From: Promethearchaeia archaeon | GTDB taxonomy: Archaea; Asgardarchaeota; Lokiarchaeia; Sigyniarchaeales; SOKP01 | Length of the DNA: 40,339 nt | Assembly: GCA_029856125.1 (NCBI GenBank) | Contig: JAHQWJ010000046.1 | Coordinates: forward strand, 1 to 40,339 | Reading direction: 5' to 3' | Shown: positions 1 through 9,381 of the stretch, piece by piece | How positions within the stretch are numbered: position 1 is the first letter of the stretch | How the letters are laid out: every line of letters starts with the position of its first letter | The notes under the pieces: model-generated | Databases searched by the model: none | What the model saw: only the letters and a program-made list of their open reading frames with translations | What the model was told of the DNA's origin: nothing | Translations under genes and position numbers: made by a program

Positions 1-1996
1 AATTTTCATAATCTTTGTTAAGTTTAGCCCGAAATTTTTTCTTAAACTTATAATTTGGATATTTTTCAAGAGGATACATTTTGGAAAGTGCATCAGGAAC
101 AAGAATTCCATCCTCAATCAACTCATGAAATTCTTCAAGTTTTTTATTTCCATTCTCGTACGCAAGTTTTGATTCTTCTTTTGATTTATCTAATGTTTTT
201 CCAAAATCTATTGCTGATTTCATCTCTGAATGTTCCCTGGTATTAAAAATCCATTCAATAACGGGAATATTAGAAACTGCTGAGTGTTGAGTGACATCTG
301 GAAGGATCAGGAATTTCGGACAATAATAATGATCATTACTACTACTAATGAGTCTTGGAACAAATATAAAATCTAGATCGGGGTGATTTTTCGATAAATA
401 ATTCACATGACCATAATGAATCTTGACTGGAATGCATAAATCGGTAGCAGATTGATTAGATCCGTTGGTAAGAATTTCTTTGTTTGTTTCTGGACTCACA
501 ATAACTTCGCAACCAAGACTTGTAAGCATTCCTTCCCATAATGGAAAATACTTGTAGAAATACAGGGAACGTGGTATACCTACCTTCAGTCTTTTCGTCT
601 TTTCAGTTTTTTTCTGAATAGAATTATAATTCGTCTTTTCGTACAAGTTTCGAAATAGGTTCTTGGGATCCGTTCGTTCTTTCACTTCATCGTATAATTT
701 CTTGTTATATATCTTCCAGAACACGTCTTCCTCGTAGAAATTGTGAGTTATCAGGGTTTTCATTCCCTTGAGCTCTTGAACCTTTTCTTCTAGCGCTTTA
801 TAGAAGTTAAATCCCTTTCTTTTTTGTTCGAACCCGTAGATAGCAAAATCTATGAATAGCTCATCCTCGACGGTAGCGAACATGTCTTGATTGAGCCACG
901 GGTAGAACTTGTACCCATCTAGTTTGTTTTTTTGCATGCGGTAAGGGACGATCCATACCGGGAAGTAATCAAATAACTCCAGGTACCAATCGAAAAATTC
1001 TTCCGCGTGAGTGATTGGTATGAAGACATCAATAATCACATCCGGTTTTCCCCCCTTCTTAGTTAAAAATGGCAATCGTTCACTGATCTTAAGAATATTT
1101 GTCGATCCAAGTATAAAGGGCCCTGTTAACCACCGGACTACTTTATTCTCAAAAATTCCTCCAGCAACATTCCTTATCGCCCAGTGACAATCTGCATCAT
1201 ACCTGAAAAAATAATCTATGGTGGAGAGGAAGTCTTGCTTTTTTTTCATCGCACTTTTGTAATAAATATCGTAGAAATATTCACTCTTGTAAGGAGCTTC
1301 CTCCTCATCAACGAAGCTGGCAACGCAGAGTACGTTCATATTCTTGGAGAAGATAAGCCCGTCCATCATTTCAATATCCTGCTTTTCGTAGTGTTGCTTG
1401 ATAGCTTCTAGGTATTTACTAAAAGTATCGTAATGGATGTAATCAATGCGGACACACTCTTTTGCTGAAACGAGCTTAAACTTCAGGAGTGTGATGATTG
1501 CAATCGTGCCGAAACTCCCGTGCAGCATCTCGAATATTTCATGGTTATCACTTTTCGTGCATAACATTATGTCACCTGTTCCCGTCACAATCTCTATTTC
1601 TTCACAGGAATCGAAAAATCCCCCATATTTGAAAGACATGGATTCAACTGAACATCCTGCTACTGCCCCGCCTATCGTGATTCCCTTGAGCTCGGAAACA
1701 CATTGCGGTACGAGCCCATGCTTTAAGGTTTCTGTTGCAAGCCTAACAAAAGTAATCCCTGCTTCTGCAATACATGTTTTTGTATCCGTGTTTATCTCAA
1801 TAATGTCTGTAAGTGACTTCACATCTATCGGTTTGTCACTATAGATCGGGTTATCTGGCTGTGGAGCCATGTGGGAAACGCTCGCCTTTTTTAGAGAGAA
1901 AAATTCCCCCGGCTTTGCGTTATCGTACGCATTTCTAACCATTTCAGAGATAGCTTCTACTTTTCTCTTATGTATTGCTAGTTTTTCTCCACTCAT
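1..1996 (-). CDS. Fusion of a VAO/PCMH-family FAD-binding oxidoreductase (DHCR24/DWF1/TmsA-like) and a C-terminal DUF2229 (COG3580) domain; partial, runs off the left edge
   Basis: Translated by hand from ATG at 1996 (MSGEKLAIHK...). It is absent from the ORF track because it has no stop in the window. FAD motif PQCVSELKGITIGGAVAGCSVESMSFKYGGFF and HGSFGT, then ...DPKNLFRNLYEK, reads in frame into RLKVGIPRSLYFYKYFPLW...DLCIPVKIHYGH...YYCPKFLILPD. Confidence 0.85.
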   Translation of the reverse strand, partial: MSGEKLAIHKRKVEAISEMVRNAYDNAKPGEFFSLKKASVSHMAPQPDNPIYSDKPIDVKSLTDIIEINTDTKTCIAEAGITFVRLATETLKHGLVPQCVSELKGITIGGAVAGCSVESMSFKYGGFFDSCEEIEIVTGTGDIMLCTKSDNHEIFEMLHGSFGTIAIITLLKFKLVSAKECVRIDYIHYDTFSKYLEAIKQHYEKQDIEMMDGLIFSKNMNVLCVASFVDEEEAPYKSEYFYDIYYKSAMKKKQDFLSTIDYFFRYDADCHWAIRNVAGGIFENKVVRWLTGPFILGSTNILKISERLPFLTKKGGKPDVIIDVFIPITHAEEFFDWYLELFDYFPVWIVPYRMQKNKLDGYKFYPWLNQDMFATVEDELFIDFAIYGFEQKRKGFNFYKALEEKVQELKGMKTLITHNFYEEDVFWKIYNKKLYDEVKERTDPKNLFRNLYEKTNYNSIQKKTEKTKRLKVGIPRSLYFYKYFPLWEGMLTSLGCEVIVSPETNKEILTNGSNQSATDLCIPVKIHYGHVNYLSKNHPDLDFIFVPRLISSSNDHYYCPKFLILPDVTQHSAVSNIPVIEWIFNTREHSEMKSAIDFGKTLDKSKEESKLAYENGNKKLEEFHELIEDGILVPDALSKMYPLEKYPNYKFKKKFRAKLNKDYEN

Positions 1997-2236
1997 GTCA
2001 AACTCAGTGTTTTTTCAAGAAAAATATAACAGCTTTTACAAACTTAGAATAAATCAAATAACACAGTTTAAAATAAAAATTTACCCATTGAAAACACATT
2101 CTCAATCGTATGTTAATCTTATTAAGTAAATACATCAAATTTAATAATGAAAAACAATAATTATCTAATTCAAACTTTAAATTTCTCAATCTCATGATCT
2201 TCTAAATAAAAAAAGCTTAAACAATATATGGGAACT

Positions 2237-3313
2237 TTATACTTCTTGTTTTGATTTAATTGTTAGGTGGTGTTTTCTTCCAAGATATAATCTTCTTTTC
2301 TTTCTCCGAATCATTTCGACAAAGGATTCGACGCGCGTCAACAGGCCAGCTTCTCCCGAATGCTCATCCATTATAATCTCTAAAAAGGGAAGGCCTACAA
2401 CTTTCATGTCTCTCATAATTAATTCTGAAATGAGACTATCTGGACCGCAAGCAAAACTTATCAAAAAGATTACACCATCGATTTCCTCTCTCCCTTCAGT
2501 AAGAAAATAACGAATACCTTGCATGATTTCTTCTTCGTGGCGCCAATAGTTTCGTAGCTTACCGCCTCTTGGATTAACTATGACGGGTTTCTTAAAAACA
2601 AATTCGGGTAAATTTTCAATCGTAATAACTTCGACGCCTTGATCTTTTAGCTTTTTCTGAAAGTCAAGATTAATGAATATGTCGAAAATGTTATAACCGT
2701 GCCCTAAAAGTAGAAACTTAATATCACCCGTACTTTTCTTCTTAGGTAATGTGAAAGGGCGATCCCTTTCAGTTAATCTTAAGGCGTGATTGACAGAAGA
2801 ACCATTTCTTAAAAATTCGCGATATTCGTCGAAATACTTTTGGGCTTCTCTGTATGCGTTTAATGCTTGATTTTGATTCTTCCCTAATTGTCTTCCGAGT
2901 TCAATGGCTGCTGTAGATATCGGAAATTCTTTAACGTTTACTTCGAAATTCAAAATTTTTGGAATATCAGGCAAGATTTTAATTACATCGGGTAACGACA
3001 AAAATTTAGGGCAGAAATAAGAGTCTTTTACTTCAGATACATACCTCGGTACAAAAACAAAGTCTAAATCGGGATGATCCGCTACCAATTTTAAAAGCTG
3101 CCCGTAGTATATCTTAACTGGAATGCACAACTCGCCAAATCCGTGAGTTACGCCTTCTTCAACTATTTTTTTATTAGTTAGGGGACTTACAACAATTTCT
3201 GCGTCGAGTTCTTCGAGAATTTTTTTCCAAAATGGGAAATACCTATAAAAATGAAGTGCTCTCGGTATCCCTACCTTGAGTTTTTTCTTTATCGATTGTT
3301 GTGGTACTTCCAT
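2237..3313 (-). CDS. DUF2229/COG3580 acyl-CoA dehydratase activase-related protein (2-hydroxyacyl-CoA dehydratase-like Fe-S subunit; PlsA/Ger family domain)
   Basis: Motifs KVGIPRAL, VSPLTN, ELCIPVK, YFCPKF, SFACGPDS and DEHSGEAGLLTRVESF, with three conserved Cys. Confidence 0.85.
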   Translation of the reverse strand: MEVPQQSIKKKLKVGIPRALHFYRYFPFWKKILEELDAEIVVSPLTNKKIVEEGVTHGFGELCIPVKIYYGQLLKLVADHPDLDFVFVPRYVSEVKDSYFCPKFLSLPDVIKILPDIPKILNFEVNVKEFPISTAAIELGRQLGKNQNQALNAYREAQKYFDEYREFLRNGSSVNHALRLTERDRPFTLPKKKSTGDIKFLLLGHGYNIFDIFINLDFQKKLKDQGVEVITIENLPEFVFKKPVIVNPRGGKLRNYWRHEEEIMQGIRYFLTEGREEIDGVIFLISFACGPDSLISELIMRDMKVVGLPFLEIIMDEHSGEAGLLTRVESFVEMIRRKKRRLYLGRKHHLTIKSKQEV

Positions 3314-3334: not shown

Positions 3335-5011
3335 CTATGCATCTGGGCTATCATAAAGAAGTAAATCTTTAATTTGGGCCATCATGTTGGCTGTCAAACG
3401 CTTCAATTCTTCATAGTCAGGCATTGGTTTACCCCAGTGTTTTTTATGTTCCATGAATGGTGGTCCCGCCTTCATTATCTGACCTCTATAAAAGCTTAAC
3501 ATCTTAGCGTGCTTTGGGTAGGTTTTTTCTGTGCCTGTTATTCCAACCAATAGAATCGGTACTTGTTTTTCAATTGCCAATCGCATAGCTCCAGTGTGTC
3601 CTTCTAAAAGTTCACCACCACCCGCATTAGTAGTTCCTTCAGGGTACATGCATACTAAATCTCCTTTATCAAGTACATCCTTTGCGAAATTATAAGAGTC
3701 TACATCGTGTAGTCCTCGCTTTAATGGAAATGCGTGATGATTTCTAACCCAAGCGTTAACTAGCGGTGGTTTGAATAAAGATTGTTTGGCCATTTGGTAA
3801 AGAACTCGTTTTCTGTGGTAGATTAAGGATGCTGCAAAGATAAGTACGTCCCATTCTGAGTTGTGGTTAGTGCAGACAACAGCTGCGCCTTCGTCAGGGA
3901 TATACTTTTCAAAATCGATTACCTTGTAAGGCATCATTAAATTGCTCCAATTGCACACTAGCCATCCTGAGAAATTATGAACTGTTTCTTGGAATTTGGC
4001 TCGTAATCCAAATGCTTCTAAACTTTTTAATAAGGAATACCACAAATCATCGACGAATCCTAAAGCACCCTTTCCAAAATCTTTCAAGTATCTCATAGGG
4101 GATGACGATTCTTTCGGTTTTTGAGCATCTTCTGGAGAACCGATTGATAATTCTACTTTTTTTTGTTTCCTTGTATCTACAATAACGTAATCTCGTAAGT
4201 CCATTACTACTTGTCTTAATTCTGCAGATAGTCTTTTTATTTCATCGTACGATATTGTATTAATGTCGTAATCGTTATAATAAATAGGATCACCTACGCG
4301 CACTTTAACTTGCGTTGGTTTCATGACCAATTTACCTTTTGGCAAAGCATTCCTTGACCCAATTACTGCCATTGGAACAATAGGGACCTTCATTTCAATT
4401 GCAAGTCGAACTGCGCCGGTTTTAAATTCTCCAATCTCCCAACCAGTTTCTTCCCTAGATCTCGTGCCTTCGGGGAAAATTCCAACCCATTCACCTTCTT
4501 CAATTATTTCTTTGGCCATTTTCCAGGCTAGTTCAGGATTTTCTCGATCTAATTTGAATGCTCCTAAGTTGGTAAAGAGAGTTTTTACTAAGGGGGTTTT
4601 AAAATTATCCATTTTACTCATGTATCGAATTCTTCTATGACAAGCGGCTCCATAAAAAAATGGGTCTAAGTGGCTTTCATGTGAGCCCACGAGGATACCT
4701 CCACCATATTCTGGAAACATATTCCCTTGTGGGTATTCTGCTTTAAAATTCCATAGTAAACGAGCAAAAAATTTAATATAAACATATGCTGCCCACCACT
4801 GAAGCTTCCCTTCAACATCCTCAAGGCTCAACCGCTCAATAGCTTGGCGCCAGAGGTCGTTTAATGGATCAATCGGATTGTATTTTAAAAACTTGTAAGT
4901 CGCATTTTGATGACGTTTTCCAAAATCTAACTCTTCTTGTTCCTTTTCTTCAGTAGTTTTCACAATCCTACCTTCTTCTGAAGTTTTATAATCTTGTTCT
5001 TTAAGTTGCAT
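3335..5011 (-). CDS. Tandem two-domain lysophospholipid/glycerol-phosphate acyltransferase (PlsC-like x2)
   Basis: Domain 1 has SHESHLD...FPEGTRS...VPIVP. Domain 2 has NHNSEWD...YPEGTTN...VPILL. Start moved to ATG 5011 (MQLKEQ) to avoid overlap with the upstream HAD gene. Confidence 0.9.
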   Translation of the reverse strand: MQLKEQDYKTSEEGRIVKTTEEKEQEELDFGKRHQNATYKFLKYNPIDPLNDLWRQAIERLSLEDVEGKLQWWAAYVYIKFFARLLWNFKAEYPQGNMFPEYGGGILVGSHESHLDPFFYGAACHRRIRYMSKMDNFKTPLVKTLFTNLGAFKLDRENPELAWKMAKEIIEEGEWVGIFPEGTRSREETGWEIGEFKTGAVRLAIEMKVPIVPMAVIGSRNALPKGKLVMKPTQVKVRVGDPIYYNDYDINTISYDEIKRLSAELRQVVMDLRDYVIVDTRKQKKVELSIGSPEDAQKPKESSSPMRYLKDFGKGALGFVDDLWYSLLKSLEAFGLRAKFQETVHNFSGWLVCNWSNLMMPYKVIDFEKYIPDEGAAVVCTNHNSEWDVLIFAASLIYHRKRVLYQMAKQSLFKPPLVNAWVRNHHAFPLKRGLHDVDSYNFAKDVLDKGDLVCMYPEGTTNAGGGELLEGHTGAMRLAIEKQVPILLVGITGTEKTYPKHAKMLSFYRGQIMKAGPPFMEHKKHWGKPMPDYEELKRLTANMMAQIKDLLLYDSPDA

Positions 5012-5024
5012 AAATAGAATCCTC

Positions 5025-5810
5025 TTAGGATTTGATTTTAATACTATTTTGTGAATTTGAATTTGATAAATTTTTATTTTCAATTAGCCTTTTTAAATCA
5101 TCCAACGAATCAATTAACAAATGCGGTTGAAATTCCGCTAACATCTCTTTCTTGCTTACTCCAGTTGCTACTCCTATAGTCCATACTCCTGCTTCCTTTC
5201 CTGCTTGAATATCTGATGGCATATCACCAATCATGATAAACTCTTTTAAGTTACAGGATTTATAGCTCTCAAAAACAGGATTTAATGAGTTAGGATCTGG
5301 TTTAAGATCCGGTAAAAGATCTGCTCCAAACACTCCTTTAAACATGCTTTTCACATTGTTACTTTCAAGGTGTGGAATAATATTTTTAGTTTGGTTATGA
5401 GAAACAATAAAGAAATCGTAAGATTTTTTAAACTTTTTAATAAAATCATCTGCTTCTGGATAAAATGGAGCTTCTTTAGCGTATGTTAAATATGTTGTGA
5501 ATATTTTCGTAGCAATTCGTAGTTTTTTTAAGAATGTTATGGAGTGAAGTGATGTTATGTATTTAAATAATTCAAACGCTTCTAGTATGATTTTAGGGAG
5601 TGGAGTTCCTTGAATTATCTCCATCAATGCACCAATCTCTTGCATTGTCGTCTCGATATCATAGTTAATCTGTTTTTCATTGAAAACTTCTTCTATTGAA
5701 TTTCTCAATGATTCTCTTATATCGAGGAGAGTCCCGTCAAAATCGAATATAATTCCTCGAATTGTCCCGTTTTGAATCCGTTTAACTAATTCGTTGTCAG
5801 AGCTCATCAT
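5025..5810 (-). CDS. HAD-superfamily phosphatase (phosphoglycolate-phosphatase-like, cap C1)
   Basis: Motif I FDFDGTL, motif II SH, KPDP and motif IV IGDMPSD. Confidence 0.9.
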   Translation of the reverse strand: MMSSDNELVKRIQNGTIRGIIFDFDGTLLDIRESLRNSIEEVFNEKQINYDIETTMQEIGALMEIIQGTPLPKIILEAFELFKYITSLHSITFLKKLRIATKIFTTYLTYAKEAPFYPEADDFIKKFKKSYDFFIVSHNQTKNIIPHLESNNVKSMFKGVFGADLLPDLKPDPNSLNPVFESYKSCNLKEFIMIGDMPSDIQAGKEAGVWTIGVATGVSKKEMLAEFQPHLLIDSLDDLKRLIENKNLSNSNSQNSIKIKS

Positions 5811-7062: not shown

Positions 7063-9381
7063 ATGATAAAAAAAATTAGAATGTTAGCACTAGTAACTCT
7101 TATAGTAATTTCTGCTTCAGCTTTTTCTTTAAAAGAATTAGAAACTCCAATTATAGTGACACCACAATTACCAGTATCAAGTGGAATTGGGCAAAATATA
7201 ACAGGAAGCTATGATGGGGATATCTCACTCGTTTATTTTGATTTCAATTCAGACTTTACTTCGTGGTTTGATCAAAATTCAAGTACGAGCATGATTCCTC
7301 ATAATAGATCGGTAAACAACAAAGAATTTGTTTTGAATCGGTTAGAAATCTATTCTGACAATATTATAAACGAGTCTGGTTCTGGAGAATACATAATAGC
7401 CAACAACACTAAGAAGCAATTAGATACTACTTCATCTAGAATGTTCGTTCAACAATTTACGGCCCCAGACTTAATTGCAATTGATGAGATACGGTTATAT
7501 CTCAACTATAGTATGATAATGATCCCTGAATTTAGCCATTATTATATGGTTCTTCGCATTTACAATGAGAATTTTGAAGAAGAAATAGATGTGATATGGA
7601 TTTATGAGTCAAGAATGGTCTTAGATGAATGGATTGTTTTTTATCCCCGTGCTAACATTTTTCAACCAGGAGAGACATATAGCCTCGTTTTACACCTTTG
7701 GTCAGAGAAGTTTGGAGCATTAGTTCCATTTAATTTTTGGAAAGCGGAAAATTATACGAGTCCAAGCTTCAATAAGGGTTTAACAGCGCGTTTTGACGGA
7801 ACTAGTTGGCTTCCATTTACCAACGATGCTACCACAGACTTACTATGTTTTTTCAGTTATAAGAAGATTGTTGATCCTGCTGCGATCGATCTTAAATACA
7901 TAATAAACAACGAAACAGTAGTTCCCGTTTATCAGCAAAGTTCTTTTGGAATGTGGGGTTATGAAGGGTATTTTTCATATACATTAGAAAATCAACTAGA
8001 CTCACCCTTAAACGTAACAGTTACTACAAACCAAACAATTCCAGCTCTTGATGTCTATATTGAAATGTATTATATCCACATTGTTAATGCCACTGGCACT
8101 TACAACATAAAAGATAATTTGAACGAATGGACTATAGATTATTACTATGAAGAAATATCCTTCGGGTGGCCTCCTCCAATATTTTTGTTCGAACGAGATT
8201 GGGATTTTGATACATTTTTAGATCCTGATGGTGTAACTATGGATGAGATATACTTTGGGCCGATGGATTTGTATAATAAATCATATTATGGAGTTACTAT
8301 ATTTTTTGGACCTCCTCTTGAGCGTGGATTTTATACTGGGATATTTCACTCTCCCAATTATTGCAATATTATCAATTCTAAAATCAAATCAGGATCGCAA
8401 TTTGTAATAAGAAGCTCTCTGGAACTCGGACAAACTATTATGATAGACGCAGAAATCCGAAATACTTTTAACCAACCCCTCTCTGGAGGTTCAGGACAAA
8501 TTTTAATTACTTCAGCATCAGGAACGATAATTCTCAACGAAACGGGGCTTACATCTATTAATGGTTTAATGAGCAGTTCGGAAGTATTACTTAACTCTGA
8601 ACTCGGAGAGGGTTTTTATACCGTGGAAATATTTTGGACAAATGGGAAAGAGATCGCTTTCTATTCCGTTCAAATCCAGGTTGAGGATCCTGCTAAAATA
8701 GTGCTTTTCGTTGGTATTATTATTGGAATTGCTGCTGCCTCAACCCCCTTAGCTATTGTTGCGAGAAAGCAAATAAAACAAAGAAATTGGAAAAAAGCTT
8801 TAAAGAACCTATTTGTATTAACAAAAGATGGAGTAAGCCTTTACGAATATTCATTTGGAATTGAGATTCAGGATCCAGCACTCATATCAGCGATGATTGC
8901 AGCTCTCACTAATTTTGTAAGGGAAGCTACTGGAAGCAAAAAAGCACTTCGTACTGTTGACCAAGAAGATAAAAAAGTCTTATTATATCACGGAGATTAT
9001 GTAACTGTTGCACTTTTATCCGAAAAAGATTTACCGATAATTCATAAGCGAATAAAAAAGTTTACAGAATTATTTGAAGTTGAATATGGTAAACATCTAA
9101 AAGGTTGGAAAGGAGAAACAACGATATTTAAAGGAACTGAGGTAATTTTGAATAAACAATTTCCGTTAGATGTTGAGGAGCAAGTAATTAGAGGCGTTAA
9201 GCAAAAACTTTTAGAATTTAGACAACAACTCGACATTTTAAACGATCCAGCACACATTATTACGCTTATGAGACACATTAACGATTTTATTTCGCGTTAT
9301 CAAGCGGTAGTCAACCAACATTATATTAATTATTATTTTGAAATTGTAAAAATTGCTGAAGAAAAGATTTCTTTAGCTTGA
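7063..9381 (+). CDS. Single-pass membrane protein: signal peptide, large extracellular domain, TM helix and cytoplasmic longin-like domain
   Basis: N-terminal hydrophobic signal and many N-x-S/T sequons. TM IVLFVGIIIGIAAASTPLAIVA followed by RKQIK. Then LKNLFVLTKDGVSLYEY...DPALISAMIAALTNFVRE...WKGETTIF, a longin-type pattern. Confidence 0.7.
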   Translation: MIKKIRMLALVTLIVISASAFSLKELETPIIVTPQLPVSSGIGQNITGSYDGDISLVYFDFNSDFTSWFDQNSSTSMIPHNRSVNNKEFVLNRLEIYSDNIINESGSGEYIIANNTKKQLDTTSSRMFVQQFTAPDLIAIDEIRLYLNYSMIMIPEFSHYYMVLRIYNENFEEEIDVIWIYESRMVLDEWIVFYPRANIFQPGETYSLVLHLWSEKFGALVPFNFWKAENYTSPSFNKGLTARFDGTSWLPFTNDATTDLLCFFSYKKIVDPAAIDLKYIINNETVVPVYQQSSFGMWGYEGYFSYTLENQLDSPLNVTVTTNQTIPALDVYIEMYYIHIVNATGTYNIKDNLNEWTIDYYYEEISFGWPPPIFLFERDWDFDTFLDPDGVTMDEIYFGPMDLYNKSYYGVTIFFGPPLERGFYTGIFHSPNYCNIINSKIKSGSQFVIRSSLELGQTIMIDAEIRNTFNQPLSGGSGQILITSASGTIILNETGLTSINGLMSSSEVLLNSELGEGFYTVEIFWTNGKEIAFYSVQIQVEDPAKIVLFVGIIIGIAAASTPLAIVARKQIKQRNWKKALKNLFVLTKDGVSLYEYSFGIEIQDPALISAMIAALTNFVREATGSKKALRTVDQEDKKVLLYHGDYVTVALLSEKDLPIIHKRIKKFTELFEVEYGKHLKGWKGETTIFKGTEVILNKQFPLDVEEQVIRGVKQKLLEFRQQLDILNDPAHIITLMRHINDFISRYQAVVNQHYINYYFEIVKIAEEKISLA

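Follow-up and report, generated by a model that had tools for sequence, protein, structure and literature searches.

The closest described systems are the ether-lipid enzymes PlsA/PlsR and Ger, whose modules are designated B (PF01869), D (PF09989, DUF2229) and H (PF06050), and Ger homologues have previously been reported in Lokiarchaeota (PMC13159169). The analysis bears on the routes by which anaerobes arrive at saturated non-isoprenoid ether lipids, and on what parts the plasmalogen-forming PlsA from the alkyl-ether-forming Ger; according to a 2026 paper the two cannot be distinguished from sequence alone (PMC13274423). The stretch of DNA analysed here, called the window, comprises 40,339 nucleotides of a contig from a Promethearchaeia archaeon. 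Its left end holds, on the minus strand, a gene in which a flavoprotein with a flavin adenine dinucleotide (FAD) domain is joined to the DUF2229 subunit of such a system. The fusion is the first gene of a three-gene cassette that moves laterally among Promethearchaeota, a feature which the preliminary description had not noticed.

With PlsA/PlsR, as present in Clostridium perfringens and, as a single-gene PlsA, in facultative anaerobes, the cassette shares the DUF2229 and HGD-D-like modules, the BcrAD_BadFG activase, acyltransferase genes alongside and the expectation that it functions only without oxygen. It differs in that its modules are split over three genes with a single-domain ATPase, and in that the DUF2229 subunit bears an N-terminal flavoprotein of 455 amino acids (aa). 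To our knowledge, no described PlsA or PlsR carries a flavoprotein domain. The 2-hydroxyacyl-CoA dehydratases and benzoyl-CoA reductases are alike in their activase (TIGR00241), in three conserved Cys residues and in a weak match to a HadC beta subunit, whereas the substrate of the cassette enzyme is presumably a membrane lipid ester and not a CoA thioester; in this family, too, we know of no fusion with a flavoprotein. On the side of the flavoprotein, the characterised family members, DHCR24 among them, reduce C=C bonds of lipids. The VAO/PCMH-type FAD domain is common to DHCR24, BfaA/TmsA and the window protein, for which lipid C=C reduction would be expected by analogy, but the window protein has neither the N-terminal membrane anchor of DHCR24 nor the partner methyltransferase of BfaA/TmsA and, unlike both, has an iron-sulfur reductase subunit as fusion partner. 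Ger of T. maritima (Tmari_0479) and D. alkenivorans belongs to the same enzyme family as the cassette enzyme, and saturated alkyl ethers are also the end product proposed below. However, Ger is one polypeptide of about 1400 aa with the module order BBDH..., compared with three genes in the cassette, and it makes saturated ethers without a flavoprotein partner (PMC13159169).

The fusion gene and its flavoprotein domain

The fusion gene occupies positions 2..1996 of the minus strand as a single open frame of 665 aa, which starts with the ATG at 1996 and is free of stops up to the window edge. Hence, the preliminary description was right in proposing an unlisted frame of at least 665 aa; it is absent from the default open reading frame listing because the gene runs off the end of the source sequence. 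Since the window and contig C47 (in a genome of 3.69 Mb and 153 contigs) begin with the same base, the gene is cut by the assembly and not by mutation. Alignment to full-length copies indicates that the window copy (665 of about 803 aa) is short of approximately 138 C-terminal residues, including the FACGPDS/HGD-D end. The FAD domain (residues 1-455; 632..1996) matches FAD_binding_4 (PF01565) at residues 57-146 with an E value of 5e-14, and covers the part of the model that is also matched by relatives labelled as Delta24-reductases. A low-complexity, K/E/T-rich linker follows at about residues 456-470 (587..631), supported by junction comparison and by a predicted local distance difference test (pLDDT) score below 50. 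The remaining residues 471-665 (2..586), supported by Pfam, alignment and the ratio of nonsynonymous to synonymous substitution rates (dN/dS), represent the N-terminal two thirds of a DUF2229/HGD-D domain, with the PF09989 match at residues 471-628 (E 2e-37). Among the NCBIfam models, none scored above its cut-off for either the FAD or the DUF2229 domain.

The C-terminal part had been proposed to be a paralogue of the upstream DUF2229 gene, and with about 42-44% identity to the product of 2237-3313 it indeed is. The linker text and the motifs KVGIPR, LCIPVK, HPDLDF.FVPR and CPKF..LPD, all four of them common to both paralogues, were likewise found as described. Three Cys residues are conserved in the fused and the stand-alone paralogue; those of LCIPVK and YCPKF are kept in the window copy, and the third, in FACGPDS, falls past the contig end.

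A protein search over 5.8 billion sequences for homologues of the fusion revealed three clusters of 803-815 aa (P0002-P0004) which carry PF01565, PF09989 and PF06050 and share 85-93% identity with the window protein; the underlying assemblies are from NCBI, JGI and Logan. Thus, the two-domain architecture which the earlier description suggested searching for does exist in other assemblies. Among 400 sampled genomes of the phylum Promethearchaeota, 36 encode the flavoprotein, and 34 of these, plus the window genome, belong to one family, within which they fall into eight genera; the copies show 86-94% identity and are fused in every case in which the contig permits a reading. The junction, for which read mapping had been recommended, was checked on independent assemblies instead: 58 loci display 22 distinct junction peptides, every one in frame; the linkers measure about 9-21 residues and differ by KTEKT-like repeats. 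At least 18 full-length copies are free of stops. In the FAD part, dN/dS amounts to 0.10-0.25; the DUF2229 part yields 0.24-0.42, except for the closest pair with 0.75, and all 59 columns invariant among 32 fused and free homologues are kept in the FAD part of the window copy. Hence, the fusion is genuine and under selection. An assembly chimera or a decaying pseudogene, as could be suspected from the contig end in the window copy and from the approximately 60% of copies in metagenome-assembled genomes (MAGs) cut in the same way, has a negligible chance given the identical junction in NCBI, JGI, ENA and Logan assemblies, the in-frame linker variants, the intact full-length copies and dN/dS well under 1.

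Longer fused forms (1428-4075 aa) were not found, in a search that we rate as weak evidence. Matches of about 900 aa were considered as other fusions and rejected, as they represent tandem double FAD domains: P0131, P0140, P0144, P0145 and P0157 (888-916 aa) each carry two FAD domains belonging to this family, with 26-30% identity to the query. In the full-text literature, queries combining DUF2229 with FAD, DHCR24 with Asgard, or naming a vinyl-ether or plasmalogen reductase yielded no description of the architecture or the activity.

The FAD part is modelled by AlphaFold2 with a pLDDT of about 95, and its best structural matches in Foldseek are cytokinin oxidase (E 5e-21), DprE1 and galactonolactone dehydrogenase. 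Together with the Pfam match, the predicted fold, in which a cap domain comes after the FAD_binding_4 domain, identifies the N-terminal part as a VAO/PCMH flavoprotein, as had been claimed for residues ~1-455. In the model of the whole fusion (predicted template modelling score 0.62), the linker and the DUF2229 part stay below a pLDDT of 50. Regarding the subfamily, the nearest named relatives are P0017, automatically named 24-dehydrocholesterol reductase and 57-60% identical to the FAD domain, and an Atlas cluster automatically named Delta(24)-sterol reductase. By these automatic names, the domain appears DHCR24-like. Of the originally noted likeness to DHCR24 and TmsA, this kinship by label is retained, but the N-terminus is a charged helix rather than a DHCR24-type membrane anchor, and a Cfa/TmsB-like methyltransferase gene is found neither in the cassette nor in the window operon. 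GlcD, AGPS and LctD match the FAD subdomain alone (E 1e-9 to 4e-3). Assignment to GlcD or D-lactate dehydrogenase, named at the outset as a refuting grouping, appears unlikely on the basis of these weak, subdomain-only matches, and the presumed kinship with AGPS holds at the level of the superfamily (E 1.6e-4) and no closer.

In a tree of 236 FAD homologues, the fused copies form one clade, sister to a protein of Anaeramoeba, and the next branch outside is a small clade including a Sigynarchaeota protein. The sister is P0017 itself, a 563-aa protein of the anaerobic eukaryote Anaeramoeba flamelloides encoded on a 16-Mb scaffold (local support 87). Its position suggests a transfer between domains of life.

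The cassette and its lateral movement

In complete loci, the cassette of about 4.8 kb consists of the fusion gene, a gene for a 343-aa BcrAD_BadFG ATPase and a 444-aa HGD-D-like gene, with overlaps between the fusion stop and the ATPase start and between the ATPase and HGD-D-like genes. Hence, the orthologous cassettes hold the HGD-D-like module and the activase in the same operon as DUF2229. The ATPase has a single domain and matches TIGR00241 (acyl-CoA dehydratase activase) above cut-off. By this domain content, the C-terminal part of the fusion and its partners are recognisable as a split PlsA/Ger-type enzyme, i.e. a predicted ATP-driven iron-sulfur system for the conversion of the sn-1 ester of a glycerolipid into an ether. 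The ATPase and HGD-D-like genes of the cassette are not in the assembly of the window genome.

The window holds the 5' 2 kb of the cassette (1..2011). Compared by blastn with all cassette loci, this segment is 86-96% identical, and nothing matches past 2011 where the context differs. Among loci with unrelated flanks the cassette is 86-97% identical at the nucleotide level, and its homology usually extends from approximately 45 bp before the first start codon to the last stop codon; in the window it starts nearer to the start codon, with the limit at about 2011. The synonymous divergence (dS) of the fusion is 0.10-0.26, whereas between the same genomes the neighbouring DUF2229 and PlsC genes reach 0.55 to >1.5 (saturation), the PlsC value against locus L026 being left out. 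Moreover, the GC content of the cassette part is 0.379 versus 0.327 for the genome. The segment 2051..2148, lying between the cassette and the native DUF2229 gene in the window, is a spacer which in other genomes comes after the cassette and directly precedes the native HGD-D-like gene; matches of 82-89% identity follow the last cassette gene in six loci (L016, L017, L019, L033, L040, L043). Cassette-less genomes of the same genus (L216-L218) display the empty site, which adjoins the native DUF2229 gene. Hence, the cassette moves laterally among Promethearchaeota, and it represents a second, paralogous enzyme set whose insertion separates the first gene of a native split PlsA/Ger-like system from the second. 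It thereby bears on the question of how lipid traits move among relatives of the eukaryotic ancestor.

Neither shared terminal repeats, for which the boundaries were aligned, nor a recombinase gene were found, and in this the cassette differs from recognised mobile elements, which are marked by an integrase or transposase, terminal repeats and att-like sites. The MAG copies cut by contig ends (genomes G000-G305) are interrupted at many positions, probably because near-identical sequence is common to co-assembled genomes. In one locus (L021, G008:C359), partial 3' copies of the native DUF2229 gene with 87-94% identity (1652-2260 and 7472-7774) flank the cassette and look like a duplication made at insertion. 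Just downstream of another copy (L016:11532-14657) lies a frame of 1041 aa with a LAGLIDADG endonuclease domain, which may be an intein-bearing or homing-endonuclease gene.

Possible functions of the tethered flavoprotein

The preliminary description read the architecture as a Rosetta-stone fusion coupling ester reduction to the reduction of the resulting vinyl ether. The coupling gains support from two further, well-separated clades of the FAD tree, whose free-standing bacterial genes follow immediately after PlsA/Ger-like genes with the same orientation. The first clade (L079, L095, L169, L186, L189, L200, L207) accompanies a split PlsA/Ger homologue, where a 469-aa gene between the flavoprotein and the PlsA/Ger-like gene corresponds to the C-terminal part of full-length PlsA/Ger; the second (L213-L215) is found in three Myxococcota genomes with a different subtype. 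Furthermore, of 201 sampled Myxococcota genomes, PF09989 is present in 19 of the 20 with the flavoprotein versus 89 of the 181 without it (odds ratio 19.6, Fisher p 6e-5, uncorrected for kinship). Less well placed is the vinyl-ether substrate, since Ger alone gives saturated ethers. An apparent 1784-aa triple fusion in L095 was rejected, as its PlsA-like part sits in another frame. A flavoprotein from a family of lipid C=C reductases, tethered to an ether-lipid enzyme in the archaea and independently linked to one in bacteria, is a testable candidate for the reduction of a lipid double bond, putatively that of the vinyl ether.

In the putative function that we favour, the iron-sulfur part of the cassette would convert the sn-1 acyl ester into an alk-1-enyl (vinyl) ether, and the tethered flavoprotein, with its FAD reduced by NAD(P)H, would saturate the vinyl-ether C=C bond. 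Protonation at C2' would yield an oxocarbenium ion, whose C1' would then accept a hydride, and the end product would be a saturated 1-O-alkyl lipid. This division of labour is plausible, although we give it somewhat less than an even chance. It fits because DHCR24 and TmsA/BfaA use the same cation-plus-hydride chemistry and because an anaerobe provides a reducing setting. BfaA is reported to be a 10-methylene fatty-acyl reductase, an enzyme that reduces a lipid C=C bond (PMC5660069). It also fits because the cassette ATPase is single-domain, and homologues of PlsA with a single B module go with plasmalogen-dominated lipids according to a published heuristic (PMC13274423).

Several observations weigh against this assignment. 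In E. coli, the Ger enzymes of T. maritima and D. alkenivorans produce saturated 1-alkyl ethers on their own (PMC13159169), therefore a separate reductase is not generally required, and in the field Ger is seen as a direct ester-to-alkyl-ether enzyme (PMC13274423). The bacterial operons linked to the flavoprotein have homologues with two ATPase domains (BB), which is the Ger-like pattern by the heuristic of PMC13274423. Approximately 110 of about 134 free loci are without a DUF2229 neighbour, although many of these contigs are short, and 18 of the 50 genomes with a free homologue, mainly from the Candidate Phyla Radiation (CPR) and DPANN, lack DUF2229 altogether. The closest free relative, in Sigynarchaeota, is coupled to a major facilitator superfamily (MFS) transporter instead, and the AlphaFold2 model gives no confident geometry between the domains. 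At this Sigynarchaeota locus (L128:8533-11168), the homologue overlaps the start of a 426-aa MFS gene, and two small GTPase genes lie upstream. In its widest form, the proposal sees in the fused flavoprotein a vinyl-ether (plasmalogen) reductase that works without oxygen and in the cassette a portable, self-contained ester-to-alkyl-ether converter spreading among Asgard archaea, and it holds that the free relatives in bacteria, CPR/DPANN and the anaerobic amoeba likewise act on their own or their host's plasmalogens; we regard this as tentative and in some doubt.

An alternative that we consider unlikely, yet worth keeping in mind, is that the flavoprotein tailors another double bond of the same lipid, so that the coupling would run through the shared substrate alone. 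The target could be an unsaturation or a methylene group in mid-chain, as with TmsA/BfaA, or else a C=C bond of an isoprenoid, like the sterol Delta24 bond. DHCR24 acts on a terminal bond of the isoprenoid type, and the nearest solved folds, cytokinin oxidase and DprE1, bind isoprenoid-bearing substrates. The characterised relative BfaA is reported to act on a mid-chain methylene (PMC5660069), and members of the family are common where DUF2229 is missing from the genome, CPR and DPANN included. On the other hand, the missing Cfa/TmsB-like methyltransferase and the physical linkage to PlsA/Ger in three separate clades speak against this alternative. Nor does unbiased clustering of the neighbours of 54 free-standing loci, in which some clusters were rejected as antisense or extended frames in high-GC DNA, point to any conserved neighbour.

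Rather improbable, in our view, is that the FAD domain serves as an electron-input module, which would accept two electrons from a donor such as NAD(P)H, deliver them one at a time to the iron-sulfur cluster of its fusion partner and so replace ferredoxin or flavodoxin. The ester-to-ether conversion requires a stoichiometric reductant, ferredoxin or flavodoxin is not encoded in the cassette, and some VAO-family dehydrogenases such as LctD hand electrons to iron-sulfur or electron-transferring flavoprotein partners. However, in the 2-hydroxyacyl-CoA dehydratases and benzoyl-CoA reductases electrons enter through the ATPase and not through the catalytic subunit, and we know of no iron-sulfur partner of DHCR24-type enzymes. 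Moreover, the flavoprotein is missing from most genomes with DUF2229, as in the 89 Myxococcota genomes mentioned above, which have PF09989 without it, and the native archaeal operon has no flavoprotein either.

The direction of catalysis could also be reversed, with the flavoprotein acting as an oxygen-independent desaturase that converts a Ger-made alkyl ether into a vinyl ether (plasmalogen). Most solved VAO relatives are oxidases or dehydrogenases which abstract a hydride beside a heteroatom, and the linked bacterial PlsA/Ger homologues with two ATPase domains show the Ger-like pattern. Against this, the characterised members of the subfamily are reductases, and from thermodynamic considerations it is hard to see which high-potential acceptor an anaerobe would use to oxidise an alkane to an alkene; we regard such an activity as very improbable.

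The native lipid operon

The genes behind which the cassette is inserted all lie on the minus strand. The first gene of the native operon encodes a HAD-family phosphatase (5025..5810; Pfam HAD_2, E 4.5e-25), whose synteny is conserved in L016, L019, L026, L048, L217 and L218. It is followed by a double PlsC-type acyltransferase with two PF01553 domains (3335..5083; Pfam E 4e-52 over two stretches; TIGR00530), the true start of which is probably the ATG near 5011. Next comes the stand-alone DUF2229/HGD-D subunit of 358 aa (2237..3313), a core gene of the family according to its Pfam match and its 120 orthologues of 77-92% identity; its C-terminal end displays a weak match to the HadC beta subunit 3o3m_B (E 0.0016). 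At the empty sites of L216-L218 the order is HAD phosphatase, double PlsC, DUF2229, spacer, HGD-D-like gene and BcrAD ATPase, and Promethearchaeota conserve this operon whether or not they carry the cassette. Judged by its gene content, it represents a complete split PlsA/Ger-like system right behind an acyltransferase of bacterial type. An Asgard host with such acyltransferases is of relevance for the question of bacterial- or eukaryote-like lipid making and remodelling in relatives of the eukaryotic ancestor.

One genome harbours a third system: in G011:C38 (L015/L026), the native DUF2229 gene is separated from the cassette by positions 5235-9592 of L026, which comprise a 469-aa gene and a gene for a 977-aa protein in which two BcrAD domains are combined with DUF2229. 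Together, the two correspond to a split full-length PlsA/Ger and are 37-38% identical to the Myxococcota operon type.

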